Source: Sedimentisphaerales bacterium (GTDB lineage Bacteria > Planctomycetota > Phycisphaerae > Sedimentisphaerales > SM23-30). From it: a stretch of DNA of 64,000 nucleotides. A program made the position numbers and the translations under genes. The stretch lies in the NCBI GenBank assembly GCA_963666285.1, contig OY762711.1; one strand, given 5' to 3'. Of the stretch, positions 50,254 to 64,000 are shown piece by piece (the stretch's first letter is position 1; each line of letters starts with the position of its first letter). The notes below the pieces were generated by a model. That model was given only the letters and a program-made list of their open reading frames with translations. It was not told the DNA's origin and searched no databases.

Positions 50254-51534
50254 ATGAATAAACTGGCAAAATACATTATTGCTGGAATTTTGCTGGGCTT
50301 GGTGGTAGGTCTTGTATTATCCAAATCTGTTGATGAGGCAGGAAACCTCTCTGGCGGTGCTTCTTTTATACTTGGCTGTATCAAACCTCTCGGGGAGCTG
50401 TTTATCCGATTGCTGAAAATGATTATTGTTCCTCTGATTGTTGCTTCTATTATCATGGGAGTAAATAGTGTCGGCAGTATGGGCCGGCTTGGCAAAATCG
50501 GCTCGATTACCATTGGATACTATATTACTACAACTGTAATTGCTATTTTGCTGGGATTGGTGTGTGTTAATGTTATTAAGCCGGGAGAAGGGGTAAAAAT
50601 CGACGATCCTGTAGTTTCTCAGCAGCTCGAAGTCGGTAGTAAAACAATTGAAGAGAAAAATTTTCAAAATTACAGTGCGCCAACACTGACGACTCTGATG
50701 AAAGATCTTATACCCGCTAATATTGTCAAGGCAATGGCAGAGGGGCAAATGCTTTCAGTTATTTTCTTTGCTATTGTTTTTGGCATCGTTATGGTCTCTG
50801 TCGGTGATAAAGCAAGACCGTTACTGGATTTTTTCAGGGCTCTTGATAAAGTGATGATGACTTTAACTAACTGGATTATGTATATTGCTCCAGTTGGTGC
50901 TTTTGCGCTTATGACAACAACGGTTGCCTCGGCTGGTAGCTCTGTTTTAGGCAGCCTGGCAAAATATATGGCGACCGTACTCTCTGGGCTTACCATCCAT
51001 AGCATTGTTGTCCTGCCGCTTATGCTGATGATTTTTGCCCGGATTTCTCCCTTGAAGCTGTTGGCCGCGGTTAGTCCTGCTCTGGCAACGGCTTTTTCTA
51101 CTGCCAGCAGTGCTGCTACTTTGCCTCTGACTATGAACTGCCTGGAGAATCGGGCTAAAATTTCTGAGAGTACCGTTAGTTTTGTTATGCCGCTTGGTGC
51201 GACAATAAATATGGATGGCACTGCTTTATACGAGGCAGTGGCCGCTATGTTTATCGCTCAGGCTTATGGTGTTGACCTTACTATTGCCGAGCAGGGGCTG
51301 ATAGTATTAACCGCTACCCTTGCTTCTATTGGTGCTGCCGCTATTCCCAGTGCCGGGTTGTTTACTTTGGTTATTGTGCTGGATGCAGTAAAATTACCTT
51401 CGGAAGGTATTGGACTGATCCTTGCTGTTGATCGTATCCTGGATATGTGCCGGACTACCGTTAATGTATGGGGTGATTCCTGCGGCAGTGCCGTTGTTGA
51501 ACGGCTGAAAAGTATTGGTATTACTGGTAAATAA
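50254..51534 (+). CDS. Dicarboxylate/amino acid:cation symporter (DAACS, GltP-like)
   Basis: LLKMIIVPL, AFSTASS.ATLP, PLGATINMDGTALY, VDRILDMCRT.VNVWGD. Confidence 0.95.
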   Translation: MNKLAKYIIAGILLGLVVGLVLSKSVDEAGNLSGGASFILGCIKPLGELFIRLLKMIIVPLIVASIIMGVNSVGSMGRLGKIGSITIGYYITTTVIAILLGLVCVNVIKPGEGVKIDDPVVSQQLEVGSKTIEEKNFQNYSAPTLTTLMKDLIPANIVKAMAEGQMLSVIFFAIVFGIVMVSVGDKARPLLDFFRALDKVMMTLTNWIMYIAPVGAFALMTTTVASAGSSVLGSLAKYMATVLSGLTIHSIVVLPLMLMIFARISPLKLLAAVSPALATAFSTASSAATLPLTMNCLENRAKISESTVSFVMPLGATINMDGTALYEAVAAMFIAQAYGVDLTIAEQGLIVLTATLASIGAAAIPSAGLFTLVIVLDAVKLPSEGIGLILAVDRILDMCRTTVNVWGDSCGSAVVERLKSIGITGK

Positions 51535-51535
51535 T

Positions 51536-53602
51536 ATGAAACACAATCGATTAGTTGGTTTGCTTCTGATAGCTGTCAGTGCTATCTCTCTTTGGCAATG
51601 CAGTGACGAAAAGGCTTTTAGCCTGGTTGTCATTGTATTAGCTTTTATTGGCGCCTTTTCTAATATAAATATCAGGATGCGTTCATCCAGGAAAGTTATT
51701 TCGCTTTTGGTAATGGCATTGTTGTTTGCTGTTTATTATCGAACTTCACATCCGGGTGGAAGCTTTTTTACCCGCGCCGCAGTACAGACTCAATGGCTCA
51801 CTTTGTCAAAATATTTTATAATGGTCAGTGTGTTTTATCTCTTTGTCAACAGAAAAGGTAAACTACCGCCCGCTATTATTCTGTTTCTATCCATTTCCGT
51901 ACTTATTTCACCCCAGATTGTCAGTGGCGAGATGTCATCTCTTGCGATTATATACACCTTTTGCTTTGTTATCGCTGCCGTGTTGTTTTGTTCGTCAAGC
52001 CAGAATTATCTTATCGCTTTCTATAGCGGTTTCAGAGCGAAGGTGTTGATCTTCGCTGCTATTTTGGTTTTTTCAACTTCTGTTGGATGGGTTGGCGGAA
52101 ATCTTCTTAATATATATGGTGAAGGATTTATTGATTATCTCATGCAGTATCATCCTGCTCCGCATTTGTTCTCCAGGGGAATGTCGAGCGGTTCGCGTGA
52201 AAAAATTGAATTTGGCGATTTCTCCAGGCTTGACAGTGTCATGAGAATGAAAGCGGCCAGGTCTAAAAAGATTATTCTGAGAGTTTTCTCCGATGAATCG
52301 CCGGATTATTTAAGAAGTATGCCCTATCCTGAGTGGGATGGTAATAGCTGGACATACGATCAGGACGTGATTACTACCGGTTACCCGATTCAGGGGGCTT
52401 CCGGTGTAAACTGGGGAATTGACCGGCGGGAGCAGGATAATATTTTTGAGATTGAACCTTATCTTGATAAAGATTCTGGGTTTTATCTGGGGGCGTATAA
52501 AGTCTTTGATGTCTGGCCCTCACCTGATTTTGAAGGTGCTTTTTTTATTCCTCATGATATTCACTTTGTTCGTATGCCTTCTGAATCAATATTATATAAT
52601 AATGATAAATTACTCGAATATGCCGGTGACTATATACCCGGTTCCAATTATCAGGTTGCGGTCCCGCTTACTCCCTTGACTCTTTCTGTGCCTGCTGAAA
52701 ACATGGATGGATACCTTCAACTGCCTGATCGGGGAGTTCACCCTCGTGTAAAAAATCTGGCACTTTCTATTACAGAAGGGTGTGTTACTCCGGCTTCAAA
52801 AATCAATGCCGTGAAAAAGTATTTTCATGATAATTATAAGTATAGCCTTTCTGTTTCTATTCCGCGTCACAGAGATCCTGTAAACTATTTCTTACTTGAG
52901 CGGCCGGATGCTTATTGTGAATATTTTGCCGCTGGTACTGCGGTATTACTTAGAATTGCCGGCGTACCATGCAGGTATGTGACCGGCGTTGTTGTTAACG
53001 AAAGAGATACTATTGCCGATTGCTGGGTTGCTCGCCAACGAGATGCCCATGCCTGGGTTGAAGCCTGGGACGCTGGCAAAAAACAATGGGTTATCGTTGA
53101 AAGTACGCCCGCTGCCGGTGTGCCGCAAGCTGATGATGAAGTATCTTTATTTTCAAGTTATGTTGATTACTTCAAATTTAAATTCCAGGAATTAAGATTG
53201 TCTCTCGGGCTTGGTGGCATAAGCGGGTTGCGTATGTGGGTTTCTGAGGCATTGTATCATCTGATTGTCTGGCTGTTTACTACTGTTCCGGGGATGCTTG
53301 TTTTACTGATTATTTTTCTGATTATGTCAAAGCGGGCAAAGGCAAGGATTGTTGAACTATGGCAGATTAGAAATATTGATCCGAAAATTAGAATGATGAA
53401 TAATCAGCTCTCAAAAATGGACCGCAAACTTACCAGGTTCGGCTTGAGACGTTTGCCTGATGAAACTGTAAGAGCATTCGCTAAACGTATCGGAGAATCC
53501 GATAATAATAAGATTCAAGCGAAAAAAGATCAGTTTGTCGAATGGTATCTCAAATATGAAAGTGCCAGGTACACTTTATTCCTGCCTGATAAGCAGCAAT
53601 AA
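51536..53602 (+). CDS. Membrane-bound transglutaminase-like protein (TgpA-like)
   Basis: Several N-terminal TM segments; YCEYFA, GVPCRYVTG, DAHAWVE, W...ESTP. Confidence 0.85.
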   Translation: MKHNRLVGLLLIAVSAISLWQCSDEKAFSLVVIVLAFIGAFSNINIRMRSSRKVISLLVMALLFAVYYRTSHPGGSFFTRAAVQTQWLTLSKYFIMVSVFYLFVNRKGKLPPAIILFLSISVLISPQIVSGEMSSLAIIYTFCFVIAAVLFCSSSQNYLIAFYSGFRAKVLIFAAILVFSTSVGWVGGNLLNIYGEGFIDYLMQYHPAPHLFSRGMSSGSREKIEFGDFSRLDSVMRMKAARSKKIILRVFSDESPDYLRSMPYPEWDGNSWTYDQDVITTGYPIQGASGVNWGIDRREQDNIFEIEPYLDKDSGFYLGAYKVFDVWPSPDFEGAFFIPHDIHFVRMPSESILYNNDKLLEYAGDYIPGSNYQVAVPLTPLTLSVPAENMDGYLQLPDRGVHPRVKNLALSITEGCVTPASKINAVKKYFHDNYKYSLSVSIPRHRDPVNYFLLERPDAYCEYFAAGTAVLLRIAGVPCRYVTGVVVNERDTIADCWVARQRDAHAWVEAWDAGKKQWVIVESTPAAGVPQADDEVSLFSSYVDYFKFKFQELRLSLGLGGISGLRMWVSEALYHLIVWLFTTVPGMLVLLIIFLIMSKRAKARIVELWQIRNIDPKIRMMNNQLSKMDRKLTRFGLRRLPDETVRAFAKRIGESDNNKIQAKKDQFVEWYLKYESARYTLFLPDKQQ

Positions 53603-53774
53603 TTTTTGTTACAATTTCTTTTCCTTGATTTCACTACTTTTCAGCCTATTTGAAAAATCATTTTGATAATTGCTCCGTATATGCTAAGATTTATATATCA
53701 GATTGAGATATTTGATGCTGATTTTATCAAAAATAATTTCATCGTTTTGGTAAAATCTTTGTTTTTGCAATGTT

Positions 53775-53959
53775 AGCCTCTGCTGTGTACGTTACATTTG
53801 CATAATTGAAGAACCTATTGAGCTTGAAAAAATGGGAGCCTTGTATAGGTGTAGCCGGACAAGCCCGTTTTACCCGGGATCTCTGGAAAGCTGATGAGGC
53901 CCCCCCCTTAAAATAAGGGGTTCCTTCAATTAACCAATTGGACGGCATTTGCGGTGGCT
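53775..53959 (+). ncRNA. ssrS: Probable 6S RNA
   Basis: ~185-nt rod: 5' AGCCTCTGCTGTGTACGTT pairs with 3' GACGGCATTTGCGGTGGCT; inner AATTGAAGAACC / GGTTCCTTCAATT; GGGAGCC...GGCCCCC..GGGGTTC as in known 6S RNAs; TGnTAAAAT at 53748-53756; T run after. Confidence 0.72.
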
Positions 53960-54128
53960 TTTTTATGCGCTGAATTAGCTGGTTGTACCAAAGATTATTT
54001 TCGGATTTCTCCCTTTTTTTTTATTTTACGGCTTATGTGTTCTTAATGTATAATGGTAAACTGTTATTTAATAAGTAGTTTTCATTATTTGGACCGCGAG
54101 TAACATTCTGTAATATTTGTTGTATAAA

Positions 54129-54237
54129 AGTTTGCTTTAGCACTTTTCAAGTTGCAATAAACGCCTGAAAGTGGTTGCTGTTAACATTGAACAGTCATAA
54201 GCATGCCTTGCATTTGTTGTGAAGCATAAAACGTACT
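54129..54237 (+). repeat. Dispersed repeat, internally deleted copy
   Basis: AGTTTGCTTTAGCACTTTTCAAGTTGCAATAAACGCCTGAAA..TTGAACAGTCA..GAAGCATAAAACGTACT. Confidence 0.7.
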
Positions 54238-54283
54238 AAAAGGTATTGAATAATTTTAGATTAACAGTTAGGAACGAGTCTAG

Positions 54284-55618
54284 ATGAGAGTTGTTATTGC
54301 CGGTGCCGGCGAGATAGGATGGTATATTGCTGACCAGGTGTCAAGCCAGGGGCATGATGTAACCGTTATAGACCCTTCAAAGGATAAAATCCGCCAGGTT
54401 AACAGCTCGCTGGATGTACATGCTGTCGAAGGTTCGGCGGCTTCTGCCCAAATCCTCGGACAGATTGCTGTTGCTGAGGCGGATTTATTTGTCGCTGTCA
54501 GCGGTTCCGATGAAGTCAATATTGTTGCTGCTTCTCTTGCCAGGAAACTTGGCGCTGCCCGTGCTATTGCCAGGGTCGATGAAGTTATATACAGAAAAAG
54601 TACTGATATTTCTTATTCGGAACATTTTGGGATTGATGAATTTGTCAGTCCTGAAACACTCGCGGCTTTGGAGCTTGCTTCGGTCATACGCAGTCCGGGC
54701 GCTCTGGCGGTGGAACATCTTGCCCGCGGTAAGATAGAAATGCAGCGTGTGGTCGTTGGCAAAGGAGCCAAGCATATCAATCGTCCGCTAAAGGATCTGG
54801 ATCTGCCCGAAGGTGTTAAGATCGCTTGTATCAGAAGAGACGGCAGTTTATTTATTCCTGCTGCCAATTCAATGGTGTATGAAAGCGATAATGTAACCCT
54901 GATCGGTAAAACTGAACAGATTGTCTCTGCTCGCAGCGGCCTGGAATCTAAGAAAGCCAGTTCCATTAAAATTGTTGTTGTTGGCGGCGGCCATACTACT
55001 CTATCGCTTGTCAGGCGTCTTCGTGCCTCAATGTACAAAGTCACTATTGTCGAACGTTCCGAAGATCGGTGCAAACATCTTGCCGCTATTCTTCCTAACG
55101 TCACTATTTTGCACGGTGATGGAACTAACCTGTCATTCCTGAAAGAAGAACGTATCGAAAGTGCTGATATTTTTGTTAGTACTACCGATTCTGATGAAAC
55201 TAATATCATGAGTGCTATGCAGGCCAGGCATCTTGGTGTGGAAAAGGTGCTGGTTCTTATACACCGACCGGACTATGGTGATCTTATCGAAAAAATGGGT
55301 ATCGACCGTGCTGTTAGTCCGCGCGTTCAGATGGCCAAAGAAATATTAACTATGTTGCATAAAAGTGATGTGCGTACCCTTTCTGTTTTTGACGATGGCA
55401 AGGCTGAAATTGTACAGGTCAGGGTTAGAAGCAGCGAGGTCACAGGGAAGTATCTGAGAGAAATTACTCTGCCCGGCGAAACGCTCGTCCTTACCATCCA
55501 GCGGGACAAGGATATCATTGTCCCCCAGGCTGATACGATGTTCCACCTTGACGATGAGGCTATTTTTATCAGTAGAACTGCCAGCCATAAAGAGCTGACT
55601 AAAATGATCGTGGGATAA
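54284..55618 (+). CDS. trkA: Trk potassium uptake NAD-binding subunit
   Basis: Two RCK_N/RCK_C pairs (IAGAGEIG; VVGGG..., LHGDGT...L.EE). Confidence 0.93.
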   Translation: MRVVIAGAGEIGWYIADQVSSQGHDVTVIDPSKDKIRQVNSSLDVHAVEGSAASAQILGQIAVAEADLFVAVSGSDEVNIVAASLARKLGAARAIARVDEVIYRKSTDISYSEHFGIDEFVSPETLAALELASVIRSPGALAVEHLARGKIEMQRVVVGKGAKHINRPLKDLDLPEGVKIACIRRDGSLFIPAANSMVYESDNVTLIGKTEQIVSARSGLESKKASSIKIVVVGGGHTTLSLVRRLRASMYKVTIVERSEDRCKHLAAILPNVTILHGDGTNLSFLKEERIESADIFVSTTDSDETNIMSAMQARHLGVEKVLVLIHRPDYGDLIEKMGIDRAVSPRVQMAKEILTMLHKSDVRTLSVFDDGKAEIVQVRVRSSEVTGKYLREITLPGETLVLTIQRDKDIIVPQADTMFHLDDEAIFISRTASHKELTKMIVG

Positions 55619-55637
55619 TTAGTCCGGCTTTATTTGG

Positions 55638-55803
55638 AGTTTACTTTCGTTGTTTTTAAGTTGCAATAACAAAGTGCCTATGGTAAATCGCCTAAAAGGG
55701 CCTTCTTGTAACGCTTTGAATTAAATATTACATTTTTCATTCACAAGGCCATATTCCGGCCTTTGCGTGTAATGTCGAACAGTCAAAAGTGCGATGCCGC
55801 ACT
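55638..55803 (+). repeat. Dispersed repeat copy between trkA and trkH
   Basis: Long near-identical blocks shared with 4844-5065. Confidence 0.85.
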
Positions 55804-55816
55804 TGAAGTATGAATT

Positions 55817-57322
55817 ATGAATTTTAAACAGATTCTTAGACAATTGGGTATTCTGGTTTCTCTGGTAGGTTTTTGTATAAGCTCTTCCTTGATCTGGGCG
55901 TTTCTCGACTATGACCAGGACCAGAATAGCAGGATAATTTTCTCTATTATTTATTCTGTGCTTTCCTGCCTGCTGATTGGTGCTATTATGGTTATCCTTG
56001 GCAGAGAACCGGACCGCGAACAGGAAATGTACCGAAAAGAAGCTATTGCAGTTGTTGGCCTTGGCTGGCTTGTTTGCGGGGTGCTGGGCGCATTGCCGTA
56101 TCTTTTCAGCGGTGTGCTTGACGGCATCTATCATGGCTGGTATGCCAAAATCGCCGCGGCCATATTTGAATCTGTCAGCGGGTTCACCACAACCGGTGCC
56201 AGTATTTTCCCCGAACCGGAACAGCTGCCCAGGGCTATACTGTTCTGGCGCAGCCTTACTCACTGGCTTGGCGGTATGGGTATTGTCGTTCTGTTTGTCG
56301 CTATTCTCAGCCAGATCGGTCCGGCTGCTAAGTTCATGTTCAATAGCGAGGTGCCCGGCCCGATATCTGAATCGGTACGCCCCAGGATCAAAAATACCGC
56401 AATGCTGCTCTGGAAAATTTATGTCGCTATCTCGCTGGTTGAGACCGTTATCCTGATGACCCAGGGGATGGACCTGTTTGAATCTCTCTGTCATACTTTT
56501 GGTACGATGGCGACCGGTGGGTTCAGTACCAGAAATGCCAGTGTCGGTCAGTATAATCACCTTGGAATTGAAGTTACTATTATAGTCTTCATGGTTTTAG
56601 CTGGCATGAATTTCAATCTATATGCCGATATGATCCAGGGTAAATGGAAATATGTATTAAAAAATTCCGAGCTTAGAACTTATCTACTTATTATGCTTAT
56701 TGCTACCGGCATGATAACTGCCGATCTGGTTATGAATAAGGCCCTGATCTATGGCAGTGTCACAAAGGCCCTGCGGTCGGCAGGTTTCCAGGTAGTGTCG
56801 ATTATGACTACTACCGGTTTTGGTTCGGATGATTTCGATGCCTGGCCCAATTTCTCTCGATGGCTGCTGCTGGCACTCATGTTTGTCGGCGGCTCTGCCG
56901 GCTCGACCGGCGGCGGTATCAAGGTCTTCCGCCTTATGCTCTTCTGTAAATTAGTTGTCTCTGAAATTGAAAAGTCTTTCAGACCGTCTCTAATCAAACC
57001 TATCCGCATCAGCAATCAGCCGATAGACGATTCGCAATGCAGGACTATCGGGGTATATGTTGGCATGATACTGCTTATTGCCTTTGTCTCGACCATACTG
57101 CTGCTTATACTGGAAAATACTATCGATATCGAAACCGCATTTTCGGCGGTTGCCGCGACTCTTAACAATATCGGTCCCGGCCTCAAAATGGTTGGCGCCA
57201 CTCAGAATTTCGCGTTTATGGCTCCTACCTCAAAGCTGCTGCTGACTTTCCTTATGATACTCGGCAGGCTCGAAGTCATGGCCATCTTCTGCCTCTTTGT
57301 ACCAAACTTCTGGAGAAAATAA
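55817..57322 (+). CDS. trkH: Trk potassium uptake membrane subunit
   Basis: FESVSGFTTTGAS, WRSLTHWLGGMGI, ATGGFS, TTTGF, GSTGGGIK, NNIGPG, GRLE. Confidence 0.96.
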   Translation: MNFKQILRQLGILVSLVGFCISSSLIWAFLDYDQDQNSRIIFSIIYSVLSCLLIGAIMVILGREPDREQEMYRKEAIAVVGLGWLVCGVLGALPYLFSGVLDGIYHGWYAKIAAAIFESVSGFTTTGASIFPEPEQLPRAILFWRSLTHWLGGMGIVVLFVAILSQIGPAAKFMFNSEVPGPISESVRPRIKNTAMLLWKIYVAISLVETVILMTQGMDLFESLCHTFGTMATGGFSTRNASVGQYNHLGIEVTIIVFMVLAGMNFNLYADMIQGKWKYVLKNSELRTYLLIMLIATGMITADLVMNKALIYGSVTKALRSAGFQVVSIMTTTGFGSDDFDAWPNFSRWLLLALMFVGGSAGSTGGGIKVFRLMLFCKLVVSEIEKSFRPSLIKPIRISNQPIDDSQCRTIGVYVGMILLIAFVSTILLLILENTIDIETAFSAVAATLNNIGPGLKMVGATQNFAFMAPTSKLLLTFLMILGRLEVMAIFCLFVPNFWRK

Positions 57323-57380
57323 GGTTGGACGGTATAATTCTTAGTGTATTGTATGCGTATATTGTGCAGAAAGTTTTGAT

Positions 57381-57908
57381 ATGAACACAACTATAACTCT
57401 CATTCAAGGTGATATTACCACCCAGGATACCGACGCCATTGTCAATGCCGCTAACAGCTCTCTTGCCGGCGGCGGGGGAGTTGACGGTGCTATACATCGT
57501 GCCGGCGGGCCTATTATTCTTCAGCAATGTCAGGATTGGGTTTCCATCAATGGCAAACTGCCAACCGGCAATGCTATGATAACCACCGCGGGTAATATGC
57601 CGTCGAAATTTGTCATTCATACCGTCGGCCCCATCTGGCGCGGCGGCAGCAAAAACGAACCGCAGCTGCTGGCTAATGCCTGGCACAATTCTCTTTCGCT
57701 TGCCGCTGAAAAAGGGCTAAAAAATATCTCATTCCCATCGATCAGTACCGGCGTATACCGTTTCCCGATCGAACTTGCCGCCGAGATAGCAATTGATACC
57801 TGCCGGAAATTCATGCAAAACAACCGGCTCGATGAAATTCGAATCGTACTGTTCAGCCAGTCGGACCTTGCTATATACCAACAGGCTTACGACAGACTGG
57901 AAAACTGA
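57381..57908 (+). CDS. Macro-domain O-acetyl-ADP-ribose deacetylase (YmdB-like)
   Basis: GDIT..D.DAIVNAAN..L.GGGGVDGAIHRAGG, VIHTVGP.W, FPSISTGVY.FP. Confidence 0.93.
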   Translation: MNTTITLIQGDITTQDTDAIVNAANSSLAGGGGVDGAIHRAGGPIILQQCQDWVSINGKLPTGNAMITTAGNMPSKFVIHTVGPIWRGGSKNEPQLLANAWHNSLSLAAEKGLKNISFPSISTGVYRFPIELAAEIAIDTCRKFMQNNRLDEIRIVLFSQSDLAIYQQAYDRLEN

Positions 57909-57986
57909 CTATTGCGAAGCTTTAAATTAAGGTCGAGCAGCGACACCTTATTAGCTTCTAACCTCTAACCTCTAAATATTTTAATT

Positions 57987-58964
57987 ATGCTTAAAATCTT
58001 CGACGGCCACAACGATACTCTCAATCGCAAATACAACTCTCATCCGATAAAGGATTTTGACTTCCTATCGACAAACTCTGACGCTCATCTGGACCTGCCC
58101 AAAGCTCGCTCCGGCGGCATAAGCGGCGGCATGTGTGCCGTCTTTACCGAAGGCGATGCTCCCACCCAGGAGCAGGCAGAACAGAATGCTCAATTAGTTT
58201 CTGGTGACATTGTTGATATCGAATCACGCTCCGGCGGCAGTTTCAAACAGTGCCGCTCTGCAAGTGAAATACAAACTGCCATGGATAATGGTACCTTCGC
58301 CGCCACCCTCCATTTCGAGGGGGCCGAACCCATCAAACCCGACCTGTCAAACCTGGAATACTGGTACGGCAAAGGCCTGCGCAGTATAGGCATAACCTGG
58401 AGCAGGCCAAATGCCTTTGCTGACGGAGTAAGCTTTGGCTTTGGTACTCTGCCTGACCAGGGCAGCGGCTTGACCGCGGCCGGTAGAGAACTTGTTCGCC
58501 AATGCAACGAGCTCGGCATACTCATCGACATGGCCCACCTCTCTGCCGCAGGCGTTCGGCATGTCTTGGAGATTTCAACTCAACCCGTAGCTGTTACCCA
58601 TGGTAATGTCTGGCAGCTGTGCAACAGCCCACGGAACCTCACCGATGACCAGCTGAAGGCCATCGCCGCAAACGATGGTGTAATAGGCATAAACTTCCAT
58701 AAAGGCTTTCTTTCTCCTACCGGAGATTCTGACTCTGACATCGACATGCAGACTATCGTCAGCCATTTCCAGTATATCGCCAACCTCATCGGCATAAGAC
58801 ATCTTGCTATCGGCAGCGATTTTGACGGAGCTTTTATGCCTGATTGCCTTGCTGATGCCTCGAAAATGCCGAATCTTATCTCAGCACTGAATACCGCCGG
58901 TTTCTCCCACGAAGATATTGAGCTTATCGCCTGCAAAAACTGGCTCAGAATCTTTCCTGACTAG
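57987..58964 (+). CDS. Membrane dipeptidase (M19 family)
   Basis: DGHND, EGAE, GLT..G..LV..CN.LG..IDMAH, TH.N, RNLTD.QL, GSDFDG. Confidence 0.9.
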   Translation: MLKIFDGHNDTLNRKYNSHPIKDFDFLSTNSDAHLDLPKARSGGISGGMCAVFTEGDAPTQEQAEQNAQLVSGDIVDIESRSGGSFKQCRSASEIQTAMDNGTFAATLHFEGAEPIKPDLSNLEYWYGKGLRSIGITWSRPNAFADGVSFGFGTLPDQGSGLTAAGRELVRQCNELGILIDMAHLSAAGVRHVLEISTQPVAVTHGNVWQLCNSPRNLTDDQLKAIAANDGVIGINFHKGFLSPTGDSDSDIDMQTIVSHFQYIANLIGIRHLAIGSDFDGAFMPDCLADASKMPNLISALNTAGFSHEDIELIACKNWLRIFPD

Positions 58965-58986: not shown

Positions 58987-59034
58987 CGACCTTTGCGTAT
59001 AATAATTTCAGTCAAAAGTACCAGGCGTACTTTT
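58987..59034 (+). repeat. Dispersed repeat, partial copy (right module)
   Basis: CGACCTTTGCGTATAAT..CAGTCAAAAGTAC..GTACTTTT. Confidence 0.65.
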
Positions 59035-59215
59035 CAGATGTTTGATAATAATTATGGGATGTTTTGAGATGAAATCACATTTAGACAATAACTCGCTTTT
59101 AGCTGTTAATTATTTAACCGCAGCTTATATTGCTATTTGTCTTTCTCTCAGAAATCTGATAGTCTCTTTTATAGTACCAAAATTGAATATTATTTTACTT
59201 TCCGGCAAGTTAGAG

Positions 59216-59390
59216 TGCGGCTGACTTTGGTGTCCGTCGGTGCTCGTGGCGAGTACGTAATATTATTAGCATAATGTAGCTTGTTTCGGATCTATCTGAA
59301 TATTTACCGGCTGTAATGTGCTATTATATCATTCTATCAGCCGCAAATTTATAAGTATCGACGGATAAGACAATGTCTTATCCTTTTTTT
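59216..59390 (+). promoter_or_regulatory. Riboswitch/attenuator-like structured leader with intrinsic terminator
   Basis: P1 TGCGGCTGA / TCAGCCGCA; 12-bp TCCGTCGGTGCT / AGTATCGACGGA overlaps terminator GGATAAGAC-AAT-GTCTTATCC-T7. Confidence 0.7.
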
Positions 59391-59442: not shown

Positions 59443-60255
59443 ATGATTGTGAAAATAAATACAAATATTAAACTTGCTGATGTGCAGGATGTATATAATG
59501 GTCCGGAAGGCAGACTGTGGGAATTGCTTATGGGTGAACAGATTCATATTGGCGGTTTGGCCTCTTCGATGGATCTTGCCGAAAAGGCTGCTGTTACCGC
59601 CGGAACCAGGGGAGTGGATCTGTGCTGCTGTACCGGTGCCGGTATGCGGTTTCTGGTACGTTTCAAAAATGTCGCTGAAATGTGCGGCGTTGATGCTACC
59701 GAAACAGTTATAAACCTTGGCATTGAAAGAGCCAAAGCAGAAGGCTATTCCGACAGGATCAGTTTTGTAGCCAATGATGTATGCAATTGCGGCATAGACA
59801 GCAATTCCGTAGATTTTGTATGGGGTGAAGATGCCTGGTGTTATGTCGAGGACAAAACTAAACTTATCGCTGAAGCCGCCCGCATTGTCAAACCGGGCGG
59901 AATTATAGCTTTCACCGACTGGCTTGAAGGACCGGTTCTAATGTCGGATGATGAAGCTGCCCGGTTCCTGGCCTTTATGAAATTTCCCAATATCCAGACT
60001 TTAGACGGGTACAAGGCACTCTTGACAGAAAACGGCTGTGATATCCGTGAAGCATACGACACCGGCCGATATGTCCAATATATCGATCTTTATATTGATA
60101 TGGCCAATAAACAGCTTACATATGATGCTCTCAAAATCATTGGGTTTGATATGGATTTGCTAACTGCCATTGGTAATGAGATGGAATTTATGCGGCAGCT
60201 TGCCCGTGATGGCAAAATTATCCAGGGGCTGTTCGTCGCCCAGAAAAACTCCTGA
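59443..60255 (+). CDS. Class I SAM-dependent methyltransferase
   Basis: GEQIHIGG, motif I DLCCCTGAG, DFVW, RIVKPGG..AFTDW; resembles small-molecule N-/C-methyltransferases. Confidence 0.88.
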   Translation: MIVKINTNIKLADVQDVYNGPEGRLWELLMGEQIHIGGLASSMDLAEKAAVTAGTRGVDLCCCTGAGMRFLVRFKNVAEMCGVDATETVINLGIERAKAEGYSDRISFVANDVCNCGIDSNSVDFVWGEDAWCYVEDKTKLIAEAARIVKPGGIIAFTDWLEGPVLMSDDEAARFLAFMKFPNIQTLDGYKALLTENGCDIREAYDTGRYVQYIDLYIDMANKQLTYDALKIIGFDMDLLTAIGNEMEFMRQLARDGKIIQGLFVAQKNS

Positions 60256-60355
60256 CTTACTTGCCAATTGTTCGTGTAATTTTATTTCATAGATACATGC
60301 CTGGCGTCTGTATTTATATACTAAGTTAAAGTGCGAAACGCACTTGGAGGTATAA

Positions 60356-61588
60356 ATGAAAAAGTGTGGATGTAACCATAATGTGCAGGTCAATTCTTGT
60401 GACCCTTGCACTCCGCCTTTCGCTAGCGGTTGTACCGGCAGCAGCTTTAATCCCTGCAATTCGGAACTGATCGAATATCAGGCTGGTATGATTGACCGCT
60501 GCTATGAATACGCGGCACAAGCAAAGAAAAGCGGAAGGCCGATTATTGGCATAATGTGTGAATATACTCCGAGAGAAATTATTATGGCTGCCGGGGCGGT
60601 TCCTGTCTGCTTGTGCGGTGGATCGGCTGCAACCATACCAGCCGCCGAAGAATTTCTACCGGCAAATCTGTGCCCGCTTATAAAATCTACCTTTGGCTAT
60701 CACGTACAAAAAAGTAATCCGTTTCTGGAGATGGCTGATATGATCGTTGCCGAAACAACTTGCGACGGCAAAAAGAAAATGTATGAACTGCTTGCGGAAG
60801 AACGCAATATGTATGTCCTTGAGCTTACCCAGAAATCACTTGACCCCGATGCCTTTGACCATTGGGTTAAAGAGCTCCATAAATTGAAAGCCGAGCTGGA
60901 AAGACAGTTTGGCTGCCAGGTTACAGATGATAAAATCAGGCAGGCGGTCCGGCTGATGAATCGCGAACGGCAGCTGCGCAGAGCTATCGCCCGGTTTATG
61001 CAGGAGGACAATCCATGTCTGACCGGTAGAGAGCTTCTGGAATTCAAAAGTATTATTTCCGGCATCGATTCCGACCTGGACCAGTATCAAAATGCTATAG
61101 ATACTCTTTCCCAACAGCCAAAACCGGCCAGGCCTGACACTGTCCGGGCGATGATCACCGGTGTGCCCATGGCCCATGGTGCCGAGCGTGTTATTGAGCT
61201 TGTTGAAAAACATGGCGGGCTGGTGGTCTGCCAGGAAAACTGTACCGGGCTAAAGCCGATTCTGGACGATGTTGATGAAGATGCAGATGATATTTTATAT
61301 GCTATCGCGGATAACTATTTCAGATTGCCGTGTTCTGTTATGACTGGTAACCAGCGTCGACTTGATACCATTAAATCGCTCGTTGAGCAATATCGCCCGC
61401 AATGTGTTATTGATGTTATCTGGCAGGCCTGCCTTACCTACGATGTTGAATCTCAGCTTGTCAAAAAATATGTTGAGCAGCAGCTTGGCCTGCCGTATCT
61501 CAGGATCGAAACGGACTATAATACTTCTGATTCTGCTCGCATCGCACTTAGGGTTGAAGCTTTATTTGAAACCATTGTCAATAAATGA
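60356..61588 (+). CDS. Double-cubane-cluster anaerobic reductase (DCCP/YjiM-like; 2-hydroxyacyl-CoA dehydratase fold)
   Basis: G.MCEYTP.EI..AAGA.PVCLC, LPANLCPLIKS, ETTCDGKKKMYE, ENCTG.K, LPCS, QAC.TY.VE, IETDY; SD GGAGG. Confidence 0.85.
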   Translation: MKKCGCNHNVQVNSCDPCTPPFASGCTGSSFNPCNSELIEYQAGMIDRCYEYAAQAKKSGRPIIGIMCEYTPREIIMAAGAVPVCLCGGSAATIPAAEEFLPANLCPLIKSTFGYHVQKSNPFLEMADMIVAETTCDGKKKMYELLAEERNMYVLELTQKSLDPDAFDHWVKELHKLKAELERQFGCQVTDDKIRQAVRLMNRERQLRRAIARFMQEDNPCLTGRELLEFKSIISGIDSDLDQYQNAIDTLSQQPKPARPDTVRAMITGVPMAHGAERVIELVEKHGGLVVCQENCTGLKPILDDVDEDADDILYAIADNYFRLPCSVMTGNQRRLDTIKSLVEQYRPQCVIDVIWQACLTYDVESQLVKKYVEQQLGLPYLRIETDYNTSDSARIALRVEALFETIVNK

Positions 61589-62565
61589 AAAATATTGTTT
61601 ATACATCTCCTTTTATACCTGCCGAATGGATTACGGCACACGCTCTTCGCCCGGTCAAGATCCGGCCTGGCTCTGATGGCAATCGCCGCTTCGCCGCCGG
61701 GTTGCCCGGCACATGCCCTTATGCTCTGGGGTTTCTCCAAGATGCAATAGACTGTGCCGATACTGCTGCTGTTATCTTTACTACGGCCTGCGATCAGATG
61801 CGGCGCATTGTTGAACTGGCCGACAAACAGACCGATATCCCGACTTTTATGATGAATCTACCCGCCACCTGGCAAAACGCTTCCGCTTTTGGCTTATATC
61901 AGTCTGAACTGAAAAGGTTAGGGCGGTTTCTTTCTGAAATTTCCGGTCATAATCCTTTTCCATCGTCGCTTGCTGATATCATGTATAAGTTTGATGATGA
62001 CCGACGCCTGCTCAGACAGGCCGAAGCTTGCCTTACTGAATATCAATATTCACAGGCGATTGCCGATTTCTATCGAAATGGCAGCCTGCCGACTTTAGCT
62101 GCCGATATTAATATTCCCACTGGTCCGGCAATAGCCATTTTCGGCGGGTCTTTAATGCAGCAGGAGAAAATCCTGTTTGACCTGGTAGAAGATACCGGCG
62201 GGCATATTGCCCTGGATGCCACGTCTTCCGGGTTGCGTGCTATGCCTCGCAGGTTTAATCTGCGGCAGCTGAAACTCGACCCGTTTGCCGAACTTGCAGA
62301 TGCCTATTTCGGCAGCCTGACCGATGCCTTCCGGCGGCCTAATAGTGAGTTGTATAAATGGCTGAAAAATGAAATTGTAATTAGAGATATAAAAGGAATT
62401 ATTTTTCACCGTTATCTATGGTGCGATCTCTGGCATGCTGAGGCGAAGCGGCTAAAGGACTGGGCCGATATCCCCGTACTTGACCTGGATTGCAATGACA
62501 ATGACGGTACAAACTCCGAGAGGATCAAAACCCGCATCCAGGCGTTCGTGGAAATGCTTTTATGA
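61585..62565 (+). CDS. 2-hydroxyacyl-CoA dehydratase (HgdB/FldC/BcrB-like) family Fe-S protein
   Basis: P.EWI.A.., TCPY, TACDQMRR, ..RRPN, GIIF....WCD.W, RI.TRIQAF.EML; ATGA overlap with upstream gene. Confidence 0.82.
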   Translation: MKNIVYTSPFIPAEWITAHALRPVKIRPGSDGNRRFAAGLPGTCPYALGFLQDAIDCADTAAVIFTTACDQMRRIVELADKQTDIPTFMMNLPATWQNASAFGLYQSELKRLGRFLSEISGHNPFPSSLADIMYKFDDDRRLLRQAEACLTEYQYSQAIADFYRNGSLPTLAADINIPTGPAIAIFGGSLMQQEKILFDLVEDTGGHIALDATSSGLRAMPRRFNLRQLKLDPFAELADAYFGSLTDAFRRPNSELYKWLKNEIVIRDIKGIIFHRYLWCDLWHAEAKRLKDWADIPVLDLDCNDNDGTNSERIKTRIQAFVEMLL

Positions 62566-63938
62566 AACAACAACCGGAAAAAATAAATCTTGAACAGTGG
62601 GACCATCGCTATCGCTCCCTGCAGCAGGCCGGGCTAATTGAGCCTGACTTCGGCGGTATTCTTAGCCGCCATGTTATCGATGGTGACCTCAGGCTGCTCC
62701 GGCTCGAATATGATAACTCTGTTGCCGCCTTGAACCTCTGGAATTTCCTGCTAACAGAAGAAGATCGCCTCTTTGACTCCCGGAAAAACGGCAGAAAAAT
62801 TGTCGGTGCTATGAAAGATCTCGGTACTGTCCCGGTTATTGCCTATTGCTTCGACGAACTTATCTCTTTCTATCCTGACGGTGCCTGGTGGATTCCCTGT
62901 GTTATGGAGTTAAATGACGGAATGTTCGGCATCGCCGATTCGCTGGGCATTGATGAATCTTTTTGCCCGGTGCGGGCTATGCTGGGTGCGTTTCTTTCCG
63001 AAGCCCATTTCCCGATACCTGATTTGCTCATCTGCAGTACCGGCGCCGTCTGCGACGATTTCTCTGCTATCGCCCAGCGTCTTAACGGTTTGGGGTTCCC
63101 GATCTTCTGGTGGGAGATACCCCATCGGCGTCTCCCGGAAAAGGATGAACATGCAATAAATTTACCCGGCGGTTTTACCGCTCCTATTGACCAGCTGCAA
63201 TTTGTCCGTACCGAACTTGAACGGATCGTTGAAGCTATCGAGCAGCTTGCCGGTCAGTCTCTGAACAAAGATATGCTCCGTTCCGGCATACAGCGTGCTA
63301 ATAATATCCGCGATGTCCTCAACCGGCTCAGATACCTTACCTTTACTGCTGATATTTGCCCTATGCCTGCACTGGAAATGCTTATTGCCGAGATGATCGC
63401 TATCCATTACTGTTCGGATCAAAACCTTGCCATGGTTGTCTTGACTGACCTTCTCGAAGAAGTCCGGCACAGAGTGAGTGCCGGTGTTGGCGTTCTTCAG
63501 CCCGATGCCGCACGTATTTTCTGGATCAACCCTGTCGCTGATTTACAGGTTATGAACGTCCTTGAAGATTGTGGCGGCAGAATCTGCGGCACCGAGTATC
63601 TCTTCACTCATGCATTAGACCCTGTCCCTGTTGATATCGACCCGCTCGACGCTCTCGCTCAGATGGCATTGGCTGACCCTATGGTCGGCCCGGCATGGCA
63701 ACGGGCTGAACGCATTTGTAATGATATAAAATTGTTCGGCAGCGAAGCTGTCATTATTTCCAGGATACCCGGTGCCAGTCATTGTGCCGTAGAAGGCCGC
63801 GTGATCGCCACTATCATTCGTGAAAAAATTGATATACCTGTAATTGAAATCGAAGTTCCACCTGTTTCCCAGTCAATTCAACCGGCACTACGCACCCGGA
63901 TTGAGGCTCTGGTTGAAACTGTCAAAAATCGGAGATAA
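62562..63938 (+). CDS. 2-hydroxyacyl-CoA dehydratase family Fe-S protein (divergent)
   Basis: FCPVRA, VCDDF, ..SHC..E, P.IEIE, TRIEAL.E; ATGA overlap. Confidence 0.78.
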   Translation: MKQQPEKINLEQWDHRYRSLQQAGLIEPDFGGILSRHVIDGDLRLLRLEYDNSVAALNLWNFLLTEEDRLFDSRKNGRKIVGAMKDLGTVPVIAYCFDELISFYPDGAWWIPCVMELNDGMFGIADSLGIDESFCPVRAMLGAFLSEAHFPIPDLLICSTGAVCDDFSAIAQRLNGLGFPIFWWEIPHRRLPEKDEHAINLPGGFTAPIDQLQFVRTELERIVEAIEQLAGQSLNKDMLRSGIQRANNIRDVLNRLRYLTFTADICPMPALEMLIAEMIAIHYCSDQNLAMVVLTDLLEEVRHRVSAGVGVLQPDAARIFWINPVADLQVMNVLEDCGGRICGTEYLFTHALDPVPVDIDPLDALAQMALADPMVGPAWQRAERICNDIKLFGSEAVIISRIPGASHCAVEGRVIATIIREKIDIPVIEIEVPPVSQSIQPALRTRIEALVETVKNRR

Positions 63939-63940
63939 AT

Positions 63941-64000
63941 ATGTTAACTGTTGGTATTGATGCTGGTTCGAGAACCATTAAAATTGTAATATTCGACGCT
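63941..64000 (+). CDS. Acyl-CoA dehydratase activase / BadF-BcrA-type ASKHA ATPase, N-terminal fragment (truncated by window)
   Basis: MLTVGIDAGSRTIKIVIFDA matches the GID.GS...K phosphate-1 motif; SD GGAG. Confidence 0.8.
   Translation, partial: MLTVGIDAGSRTIKIVIFDA

Follow-up and report, generated by a model that had tools for sequence, protein, structure and literature searches.

In the present study, we analyzed a 64,000-nt stretch of DNA from Sedimentisphaerales bacterium (phylum Planctomycetota; contig OY762711.1 of assembly GCA_963666285.1), hereafter the window, which ends in a cluster of five genes on one strand. These genes encode a methyltransferase that uses S-adenosylmethionine (SAM), designated MT, three Fe-S proteins of the dehydratase fold (D1, D2, and D3), and an ATP-dependent activase. 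Based on sequence comparisons, we consider it probable that the role of this conserved five-gene module is to scavenge selenium and that a shortage of this element turns it on through a leader that carries a UGA codon and a hairpin resembling the selenocysteine insertion sequence (SECIS). A selenium-scavenging reductive module appears to be the best reading of the predicted functions. An earlier note on the window had proposed an uncharacterized anaerobic methylation/reduction module under RNA control; the conserved module and the RNA control were both borne out, whereas the link to selenium had been missed.

The link to selenium comes from the genes around the module. Of 578 related stretches in GTDB, the best 80 were used as the loci of relatives, a set that leans to close relatives; they are related by descent, hence not independent, and counts are given rather than a p-value. 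At least one of selD, selA, and selB was present in 46 of the 80 loci; where no less than 5 kb of downstream sequence was available, the count was 32 of 49 loci. The recurring neighbors were selD (33 loci), selA (31), selB (29), DUF3034 (21), a NapH-like protein (11), an NMT1-type ABC system (6-7), and a MetA-like protein (4), and tRNA for selenocysteine (tRNA-Sec) was found in 9 of 52 loci scanned. The module usually lies between uptake genes and a SelD of the Cys form, within the selABCD island of most relatives, as in the order porin-ABC-MT-D1-D2-D3-activase-selD of L041 and L079. The linked SelD was the Cys form in 38/38 cases. It has an extra Cys-rich N-terminal domain and a CMD/AhpD domain, and the ABC binding protein has a PCCC motif, which suggests the handling of thiol-bound selenium. 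A selenoenzyme partner did not recur in the neighborhoods of the 80 loci. A third porin-like gene lies between the leader and MT at L068:9074-9856 (no Pfam match) and at about 9100-9950 of L073.

In the genome of the window, selB, selA, the ABC genes, selD, and tRNA-Sec lie together at C1:4.437-4.447 Mb without the five module genes; the module has moved 4 Mb from the selABCD island. An integrase-like ORF (open reading frame) and unrelated genes follow tRNA-Sec (L103:17015 onward and L104:1015-9600), and an element inserted at selC apparently splits the island from the NapH-like gene. Two SelD genes are present: that of the island (C1 4445146-4446777) is the Cys form, and a separate copy (C1 1953384) has TGA at the catalytic site. 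The glycine reductase family PF07355 had no match in this genome, a result of no evidential weight because the control had no match either.

The module is also held together across genomes. The MT family is large (5647 proteins at E<=1e-20). Of 301 genomes in the phylum, 18 contained MT, and these same 18 contained D3; the absence of such co-occurrence had been named in the earlier note as grounds for giving up its proposal. Among the 49 loci with at least 5 kb downstream, D3 was found in 46, the activase in 45, and all four partners in 41. D2 lay directly 5' of D3 in the loci listed; in L244, a gap parts D2-D3 from MT only. The fixed core is MT, D2-D3, and the activase, while D1 is mobile, fused to D3, or absent from some loci. 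The fusion proteins of D3 and D1 are 865-866 aa in length (L243:7204-9798 and L246:4433-7030). MT was found in 0/3 genomes of the same genus, and the module is thus patchily distributed. selA occurred in 17 of the 18 genomes with MT and D3, which says little because selA is common in this phylum (219/301). In a second phylum, that of G337, D3 was found in 8 and selA in 17 of 301 genomes. All 8 D3 genomes had selA, and in several of them D3 lay far from it or on another contig. The module occurs almost only in selenocysteine-making bacteria. At L084:2899-4787, MT stands without the other genes, with an ArsR-type regulator on one side and an SMR exporter on the other; neither D3 nor selA was detected in that genome.

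The leader upstream of MT provides the second line of evidence. No Rfam family matched it at the gathering score, and an Rfam-type riboswitch was therefore ruled out as the identity of the switch. The earlier note had spoken of an RNA switch. This stands insofar as the leader contains a terminator (hairpin 59363-59383); the element is a UGA/SECIS leader and not a metabolite riboswitch. The leader matched a motif that recurs in selenium islands, namely, a coding sequence FEYG-UGA-GGTCRYSWRV followed by approximately 41 codons, with a hairpin just 3' of the UGA. The UGA was present in all but one of the listed motif copies, most of which continued past it for 38-50 codons or whole domains, and the hairpin loop lay 19-26 nt 3' of it. 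A DNA search of 41 relatives with the leader returned mostly noise at E<=1. In the window, the upstream ORF (uORF) has candidate starts at ATG 59054, ATG 59069, and TTG 59183, and its frame is open for 72 codons (shuffle p 0.003; 51 codons, p 0.019). Judged by its sequence, this uORF appears to be a relic of the FEYG-U-GGTC selenoprotein family.

There are nine motif copies in this genome, seven in long ORFs and two in short leaders that precede MT and an ABC binding protein, respectively. The long FEYG-U-GGxC ORFs, with a SECIS-like hairpin, lie at C1 1428989, 498587, 4259781, 4441398, 4457596, 4460992, and 5361308. They are likely to represent an unannotated family of exported selenoproteins. 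Some such ORFs continue for 285-576 codons, one of them into F5/8 and LamG domains. Eight FEYG-U-GGTC proteins, with TGA read as selenocysteine (Sec), matched no NCBIfam family at a meaningful score, and the ESM Atlas returned only unnamed clusters for the family. No full-length homologue with Cys at the Sec position was found among proteins of 120-384 aa, of which just three candidates were scored. The leader thus exposes a selenoprotein family that is absent from NCBIfam and from gene calls. The second short leader, also cut down and with a terminator (L103:12100-12370, C1 about 4442100-4442370), precedes the ABC binding protein and selD, and it contains a compensatory change in the antiterminator.

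A strong terminator was found in 25 of the 32 motif copies directly 5' of operon genes and in 4 of 43 other copies, with median terminator duplexes of -26 and -11 kcal/mol, respectively; two of these four precede a porin-like gene followed by MT. Just 5' of the terminator, a non-coding strand is complementary to the codons after the UGA, including the 5' arm and loop of the hairpin, and it overlaps the 5' arm of the terminator. We examined covariation in 28 sequences, which comprised the two leaders of this genome and 26 of 27 terminator-bearing copies (L024, with a different 3' strand, was left out). The antiterminator core was 89% paired with four pairs showing double changes, a covariation reached by 4/500 shuffles, and the window copy holds two of these four compensatory changes. 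The SECIS hairpin was paired in 99.5% of cells, with double changes in two pairs, and the terminator in 94.8%, partly through the selection of sequences. An anti-antiterminator formed by 59217-59224 and 59337-59344 was considered and rejected: the family sequences pair the stretch at 59337-59344 with the SECIS loop.

We then scanned metagenomes with a pattern of the hairpin and the 3' strand, without the 3' arm of the terminator (80 of 117 loci fetched). Among 84 matches, 80 had the UGA in register and 68 had a terminator. The next recognized gene was MT in 28, DUF3034 in 21, a MetA-like porin in 10, the selenoprotein family in 5, SelD in 3, and D1 in 1, with none in 16. In a scan for UGA plus hairpin that does not depend on the motif, the rule of which was written after the leaders had been seen, such elements were found 5' of 47/85 operons and in 33/400 control regions. 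Unrelated uORFs of 9-11 codons with a Shine-Dalgarno sequence were among them (L028, L031, L088, and L249), which suggests a repeated origin of UGA/SECIS leaders. Short uORFs of this kind, unrelated to FEYG and with a Shine-Dalgarno sequence, UGA, and SECIS-like hairpin, were seen in L028, L031, L088, L244, L249, and L252, most without an obvious terminator. They possibly act in translational control.

A ribosome hides approximately 11 nt while the SECIS stays exposed, and in the absence of the Sec complex, termination at UGA is carried out by RF2 (PMC4513850). In the folding of nascent RNA, a mask of 9 or 13 nt from the UGA left the antiterminator intact in 28/28 sequences; it was lost in the models only with a ribosome over the 5' strand. 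Selenium starvation thus gave the ON state in every folding model, and the OFF state would need kinetics beyond equilibrium folding. Because a ribosome stopped at the UGA permits antitermination in these models, the operon is likely to be on under selenium limitation. This direction is consistent with the co-regulation of importers, the Cys form of all linked SelD, the TGA at the catalytic site of the other SelD of this genome, and five enzymes without Sec. With regard to the last point, eight enzyme alignments contained a stop, all at ends or isolated; none was a TGA at a conserved Cys of the five enzymes, and Sec-containing enzymes in the operon were ruled out.

However, several observations weigh against this interpretation. 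After the UGA, the window uORF has one base more than the family; an assembly error was not seen, the same letters being present in contigs of three runs from one study, possibly of the source sample. In the window, the antiterminator 3' strand shares just 3-4 nt with the terminator (approximately 7 nt in the family), and a structure that keeps 9 bp of antiterminator alongside the complete terminator has -48.5 kcal/mol versus -47.6 kcal/mol for full antitermination, a gap of only 0.9 kcal/mol that makes the switch marginal. Neither leader of this genome passed the strong-terminator cut-off. Double changes were present in just four antiterminator cells, a number reached by 104/500 shuffles, and the related sequences are not independent. 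Equilibrium folding failed to yield the OFF state: with a ribosome placed at the read-through stop, the antiterminator persisted in 24/28 sequences, and with the SECIS clamped, it persisted partly in 21/28. Furthermore, 38/85 operons are without such a leader, G338 has MT with neither D3 nor selA found, and G336 has only a distant D3 match. Lastly, methylation in the forward direction moves selenium away from selenide unless demethylation comes next, and MT therefore does not readily fit a scavenging route.

The enzymes were assigned by searches with profile hidden Markov models (HMMs; Pfam-type models and NCBIfam/TIGRFAM cut-offs). Their coordinates and the elements of the leader are summarized in Table 1.

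Table 1. Features of the module and its leader in the window
Feature	Position	Strand	Remarks
Worn copy of a dispersed genome repeat with TATAAT; possible promoter of the relocated module	58987..59035	+	Core motif in 94 copies genome-wide
Leader uORF	59069..59260	+	UGA in frame 59222-59224; read-through stop TAA 59258-59260
Antiterminator 5' strand	59233..59250	+	Core 59233-59244; 59246-59250 covers SECIS loop
SECIS-like hairpin	59240..59256	+	7 bp, UGG loop
Antiterminator 3' strand	59340..59365	+	59340-59344 pairs with SECIS loop; core 59354-59365; 3-4 nt overlap with terminator
Intrinsic terminator	59363..59390 (hairpin 59363-59383)	+	9-bp stem, U tract
MT: class I SAM methyltransferase, phosphoethanolamine/sarcosine N-methyltransferase-like fold	59443..60255	+	270 aa; conserved C61 and C133
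D1: double-cubane cluster protein (DCCP), Cys-rich N-terminal tail	60356..61588	+	410 aa
D2: three-Cys HGD-D subunit, putative BzdN/HadC-like partner	61585..62565	+	326 aa
D3: HGD-D subunit, N-terminal extension, invariant acidic residues, two extra conserved Cys; probably catalytic	62562..63938	+	458 aa
ASKHA activase (start only in window)	63941..64000; gene end at C1:384708	+	255 aa; TIGR00241

The tight coupling of the genes (ATGA overlaps at 61585 and 62562 and a 2-nt gap before 63941) was as first described, as were the coordinates, the plus strand, and the Cys patterns of the four complete ORFs. The fifth ORF runs past the window end; it is an ASKHA activase (TIGR00241, 238.5 bits versus a cut-off of 125.4) with C127 and C166 in 55/55 sequences. 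In the whole genome, which is 97% complete, D1, D2, and D3 are the sole three HGD-D genes and the activase is the sole BcrAD-type ATPase. The pathway did not continue beyond the window as had been considered possible: the next ORFs downstream of the activase matched CARDB, LigT phosphoesterase, DUF4139, or nothing. Corrinoid or URO-D-type methyltransferase genes, which the earlier note had advised looking for downstream of 64000, were not found.

The predicted structure of MT (pLDDT 96.8) was nearest to sarcosine/dimethylglycine and phosphoethanolamine N-methyltransferases (TM <=0.85, approximately 20% identity), and the ESM Atlas returned only generic methyltransferase clusters. C61 was conserved in 48/52 and C133 in 47/52 sequences. 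C133 aligned with a His of the plant phosphoethanolamine N-methyltransferase, which we take to be the catalytic base of that enzyme. By HMM and alignment, D1 appears to be a true double-cubane protein. It scored above the cut-off of NF040772 (407.8 versus 350), and seven Cys (C68, C87, C106, C136, C296, C326, and C359), present in 40/40 sequences, aligned with those of DCCP (PDB 6ENO/7YYL), in agreement with the full DCCP pattern noted earlier. Two of the Cys spacings, 159 and 29, fall short of the published ranges of 166-170 and 32-34.

D2 and D3 matched HGD-D alone above the cut-off, and they form two paralogous subunits with three Cys each. D2 retains just the TCP, ACD, and WCD Cys (C44, C69, and C280), exactly three being invariant in 76/76 sequences as its described pattern implied, and its profile is closest to DCCP, BzdN, and HadC. 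D3 has a third Cys pattern, as had been claimed: C135 and C164 were present in 52/52 sequences, C113 and C408 each in 50/52, and C284 in 49/52, and the spacing of C135, C164, and C408 suggests that they act as ligands. Its predicted structure (pLDDT 94.9) has the BCR/HAD/DCCP fold, with the best TM-score to HadB (0.75/0.85); VIA Z-scores were 30-36 with all family members alike. D86, D106, D165, and D166 are invariant, and W109, W110, C113, and C284 are conserved. An invariant YPD (D106) occupies the place of the expected catalytic Glu, an equivalence by motif position and not by residue-level superposition. In BzdO, Glu65 is the catalytic Glu beside the open iron (PMC11971306). By analogy with HadBC and BzdNO (PMC7317905, PMC11971306), D3 would be catalytic and D2 its partner. 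The substrate of the module is likely to be a non-CoA compound because no CoA-activating gene recurs in the neighborhoods; no CoA-transferase or ligase was visible in the window, as noted earlier, or among the recurring families of the 80 loci and 100 further neighbors.

We tentatively propose that a ribosome-read Sec sensor derived from the tail of an unannotated selenoprotein gene turns on an ATP-driven system that frees selenide from organoselenium or elemental selenium. Without Sec-tRNA, the ribosome would stop at the UGA, the downstream strand would invade the SECIS, and the antiterminator would form, which would permit transcription of the operon. When Sec-tRNA is present, SelB would bind and the ribosome would pass over the 5' strand, so that the terminator could form. 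Once expressed, the single activase would spend ATP to push low-potential electrons into D1 and the HadBC-like D2-D3 pair, and this pair would reductively free selenide for SelD from imported refractory selenium species. MT may methylate selenium species selectively over sulfur to give a methyl-selenium or selenonium intermediate, which may be bound by the acidic pocket of D3 and cleaved by the Fe-S proteins. This methylate-then-cleave route is a guess with a small probability, and we give about the same weight to a reduction of thiol-bound Se(0) or of oxyanions. If true, the proposal would give double-cubane proteins their first physiological job and supply a missing step of the anoxic selenium cycle. 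The genomic context would narrow the DCCP substrates to selenium supply, with selenium limitation as the inducing condition and selenoprotein synthesis as the readout. As an attenuator that combines UGA and SECIS, the leader would sense the 21st amino acid directly and could serve as a selenium reporter.

Alternatively, the operon may be induced by selenium limitation and serve as a selenium-free stand-in for a selenoenzyme, such as a reductase that cleaves methylated amines or a Sec-containing methyltransferase, rather than as a supply route. None of the five proteins has Sec, the MT fold is nearest to N-methyltransferases of sarcosine/dimethylglycine and phosphoethanolamine, the invariant Asp and conserved Trp of D3 could bind a methylated cation, and Cys isoenzymes replace selenoenzymes in Methanococcus on selenium depletion (PMC11097638). 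However, the same leader also heads porins, an ABC transporter, and SelD, uptake genes and selD often flank the module, and no selenoenzyme partner recurs nearby. We regard this explanation as unlikely.

It is somewhat less likely that the enzymes are linked to selenium while the leader of this genome is a decayed end of a selenoprotein gene with an unregulated terminator. The window copy holds two of the four antiterminator double changes, its upstream frame is open and its hairpin intact, and a second cut-down leader of the same design precedes the ABC genes, all of which oppose decay, whereas the extra base that shifts the old frame, the 3-4 nt overlap with the 0.9 kcal/mol gap, and a nearest start without a strong Shine-Dalgarno sequence are what decay would leave.

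Challenger-type chemistry consists of alternating methylation and reduction. A methyltransferase with a reductase suits this chemistry, and an operon that is on at plentiful selenium would then detoxify or store it, ending in volatile methylselenides. The conserved C61 and C133 of MT, its weak match to arsenite methyltransferase models (33.9 versus a cut-off of 263), and the MT-only locus between an ArsR-type regulator and an SMR exporter fit this idea. We nevertheless consider it very unlikely: a ribosome halted at the UGA leaves the antiterminator strand free (28/28), so that starvation means ON, and the co-regulated genes are importers and a Cys-SelD. An ordinary fermentative acyl-CoA dehydratase or aryl-CoA reductase that lies near sel genes by chance is the most improbable explanation, since D2 and D3, for all their HadBC/BzdNO fold and the corresponding database names, widely missed the HadC, BzdN, and BcrC cut-offs (identity 13-21%), and have no CoA ligase or transferase among recurring neighbors, and since D3 co-occurs with selA in 8/8 genomes of the second phylum against a background of 6%.

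By its sequence, the leader is of the attenuator type, and the enzymes belong to the BCR/HAD/DCCP family. trpL and hisL are leader-peptide transcription attenuators. The window leader is similar in having a short uORF with a regulatory codon, followed by a mutually exclusive hairpin, antiterminator, and terminator; it differs in that the sensed codon is a recoded stop, the SECIS itself is the anti-antiterminator, and the place of the leader is taken at many loci by a full-length selenoprotein gene. In sequence, it has two attributes of such an attenuator, a uORF with a regulatory codon and mutual exclusion of antiterminator and terminator; translation of the uORF would control termination in vivo. 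In Escherichia coli, selAB is repressed by SelB-GTP-Sec-tRNA at a SECIS-like element of the 5' UTR (untranslated region), as described in 10.64898/2026.03.03.709296. Both hairpins report the Sec-tRNA supply to selenium genes; however, that of selAB blocks translation beside the Shine-Dalgarno sequence, whereas the window leader has an in-frame uORF UGA and an intrinsic terminator.

D1 resembles the DCCP/DCCP-R system of Carboxydothermus hydrogenoformans (PDB 6ENO, 7YYL) in its seven-Cys motif, NF040772 match, and ASKHA partner. DCCPs are homodimers with an [8Fe-9S] cluster that is reduced in an ATP-dependent manner, attributes that D1 would be expected to share. In contrast to that system, D1 has a methyltransferase and two further paralogues as companions, forms a fusion with D3 in L243 and L246, and stands behind a UGA/SECIS leader. 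The physiological substrates of DCCPs are described as unknown (PMC9351452, PMC11971306). DCCPs have been reported beside selenium genes in SAO loci, for which the authors stated no known connection to selenium metabolism (10.1101/2022.07.06.499078), in type 1 mlp clusters (PMC10418091), and in a sel island of Slackia (PMC5322559). The available part of a 2026 selenoproteome review (PMC13188914) contains nothing on cubanes, dehydratases, or riboswitches. A literature search that covered open-access main texts returned no paper on the operon or on a UGA/SECIS transcription attenuator; comparable neighbors may be listed in the supplements on SAO and mlp loci.

D2-D3 are similar to the 2-hydroxyisocaproyl-CoA dehydratase HadBC/HadI and the class I benzoyl-CoA reductase BzdNO in that two paralogues sharing this fold lie side by side, each with a three-Cys cubane site, and are accompanied by an activase driven by ATP. 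However, they have no CoA-activating gene, one ATPase gene instead of two, scores below the family cut-offs, and, in D3, the acidic set D86, D106, D165, and D166 with two extra conserved Cys. No characterized Had, Bcr, or Bzd model passed; a match to such a pathway would have undone the original proposal. The 2-hydroxyacyl-CoA dehydratase model NF052456 scored 22.7 versus 700 with D2 and had no match in D3. Among class I benzoyl-CoA reductase models, TIGR03190, TIGR02263, TIGR02259, and TIGR03192 were below the cut-off, in addition to the single ATPase gene. The SAO system is a nine-gene locus that includes SaoX, SaoL, and SaoB (10.1101/2022.07.06.499078); the linked binding protein scored 40.8 versus 300 on SaoX, and no Sao match was found among 10 neighbor representatives scanned. 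The components of type 1 mlp clusters (at least two MtaA-like proteins, a corrinoid protein, and Ram) were not among the recurring neighbors. SdmABC of Methanococcus and these clusters are alike in tying methyl-group enzymes to selenium recovery, and SdmABC-like genes rise on selenium starvation (PMC11097638). They use corrinoid proteins and UroD-family methyltransferases, whereas the methyltransferase of the module is a class I SAM enzyme and no gene for a corrinoid protein lies close by.

The dispersed repeat upstream of the leader is approximately 75-100 bp in length, with a TATAAT/TGTAAT core and a terminal hairpin. It occurs at 94 genome sites, often just 5' of a gene start, and three copies lie in the window (4997, 55757, and 58987); it may carry a promoter. 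The genes 5' of the module (50254-58964) are ordinary and encode a dicarboxylate symporter, a transglutaminase-like protein, TrkA/TrkH, a macro domain protein, and an M19 dipeptidase, and a 6S RNA is located at 53774-53961.

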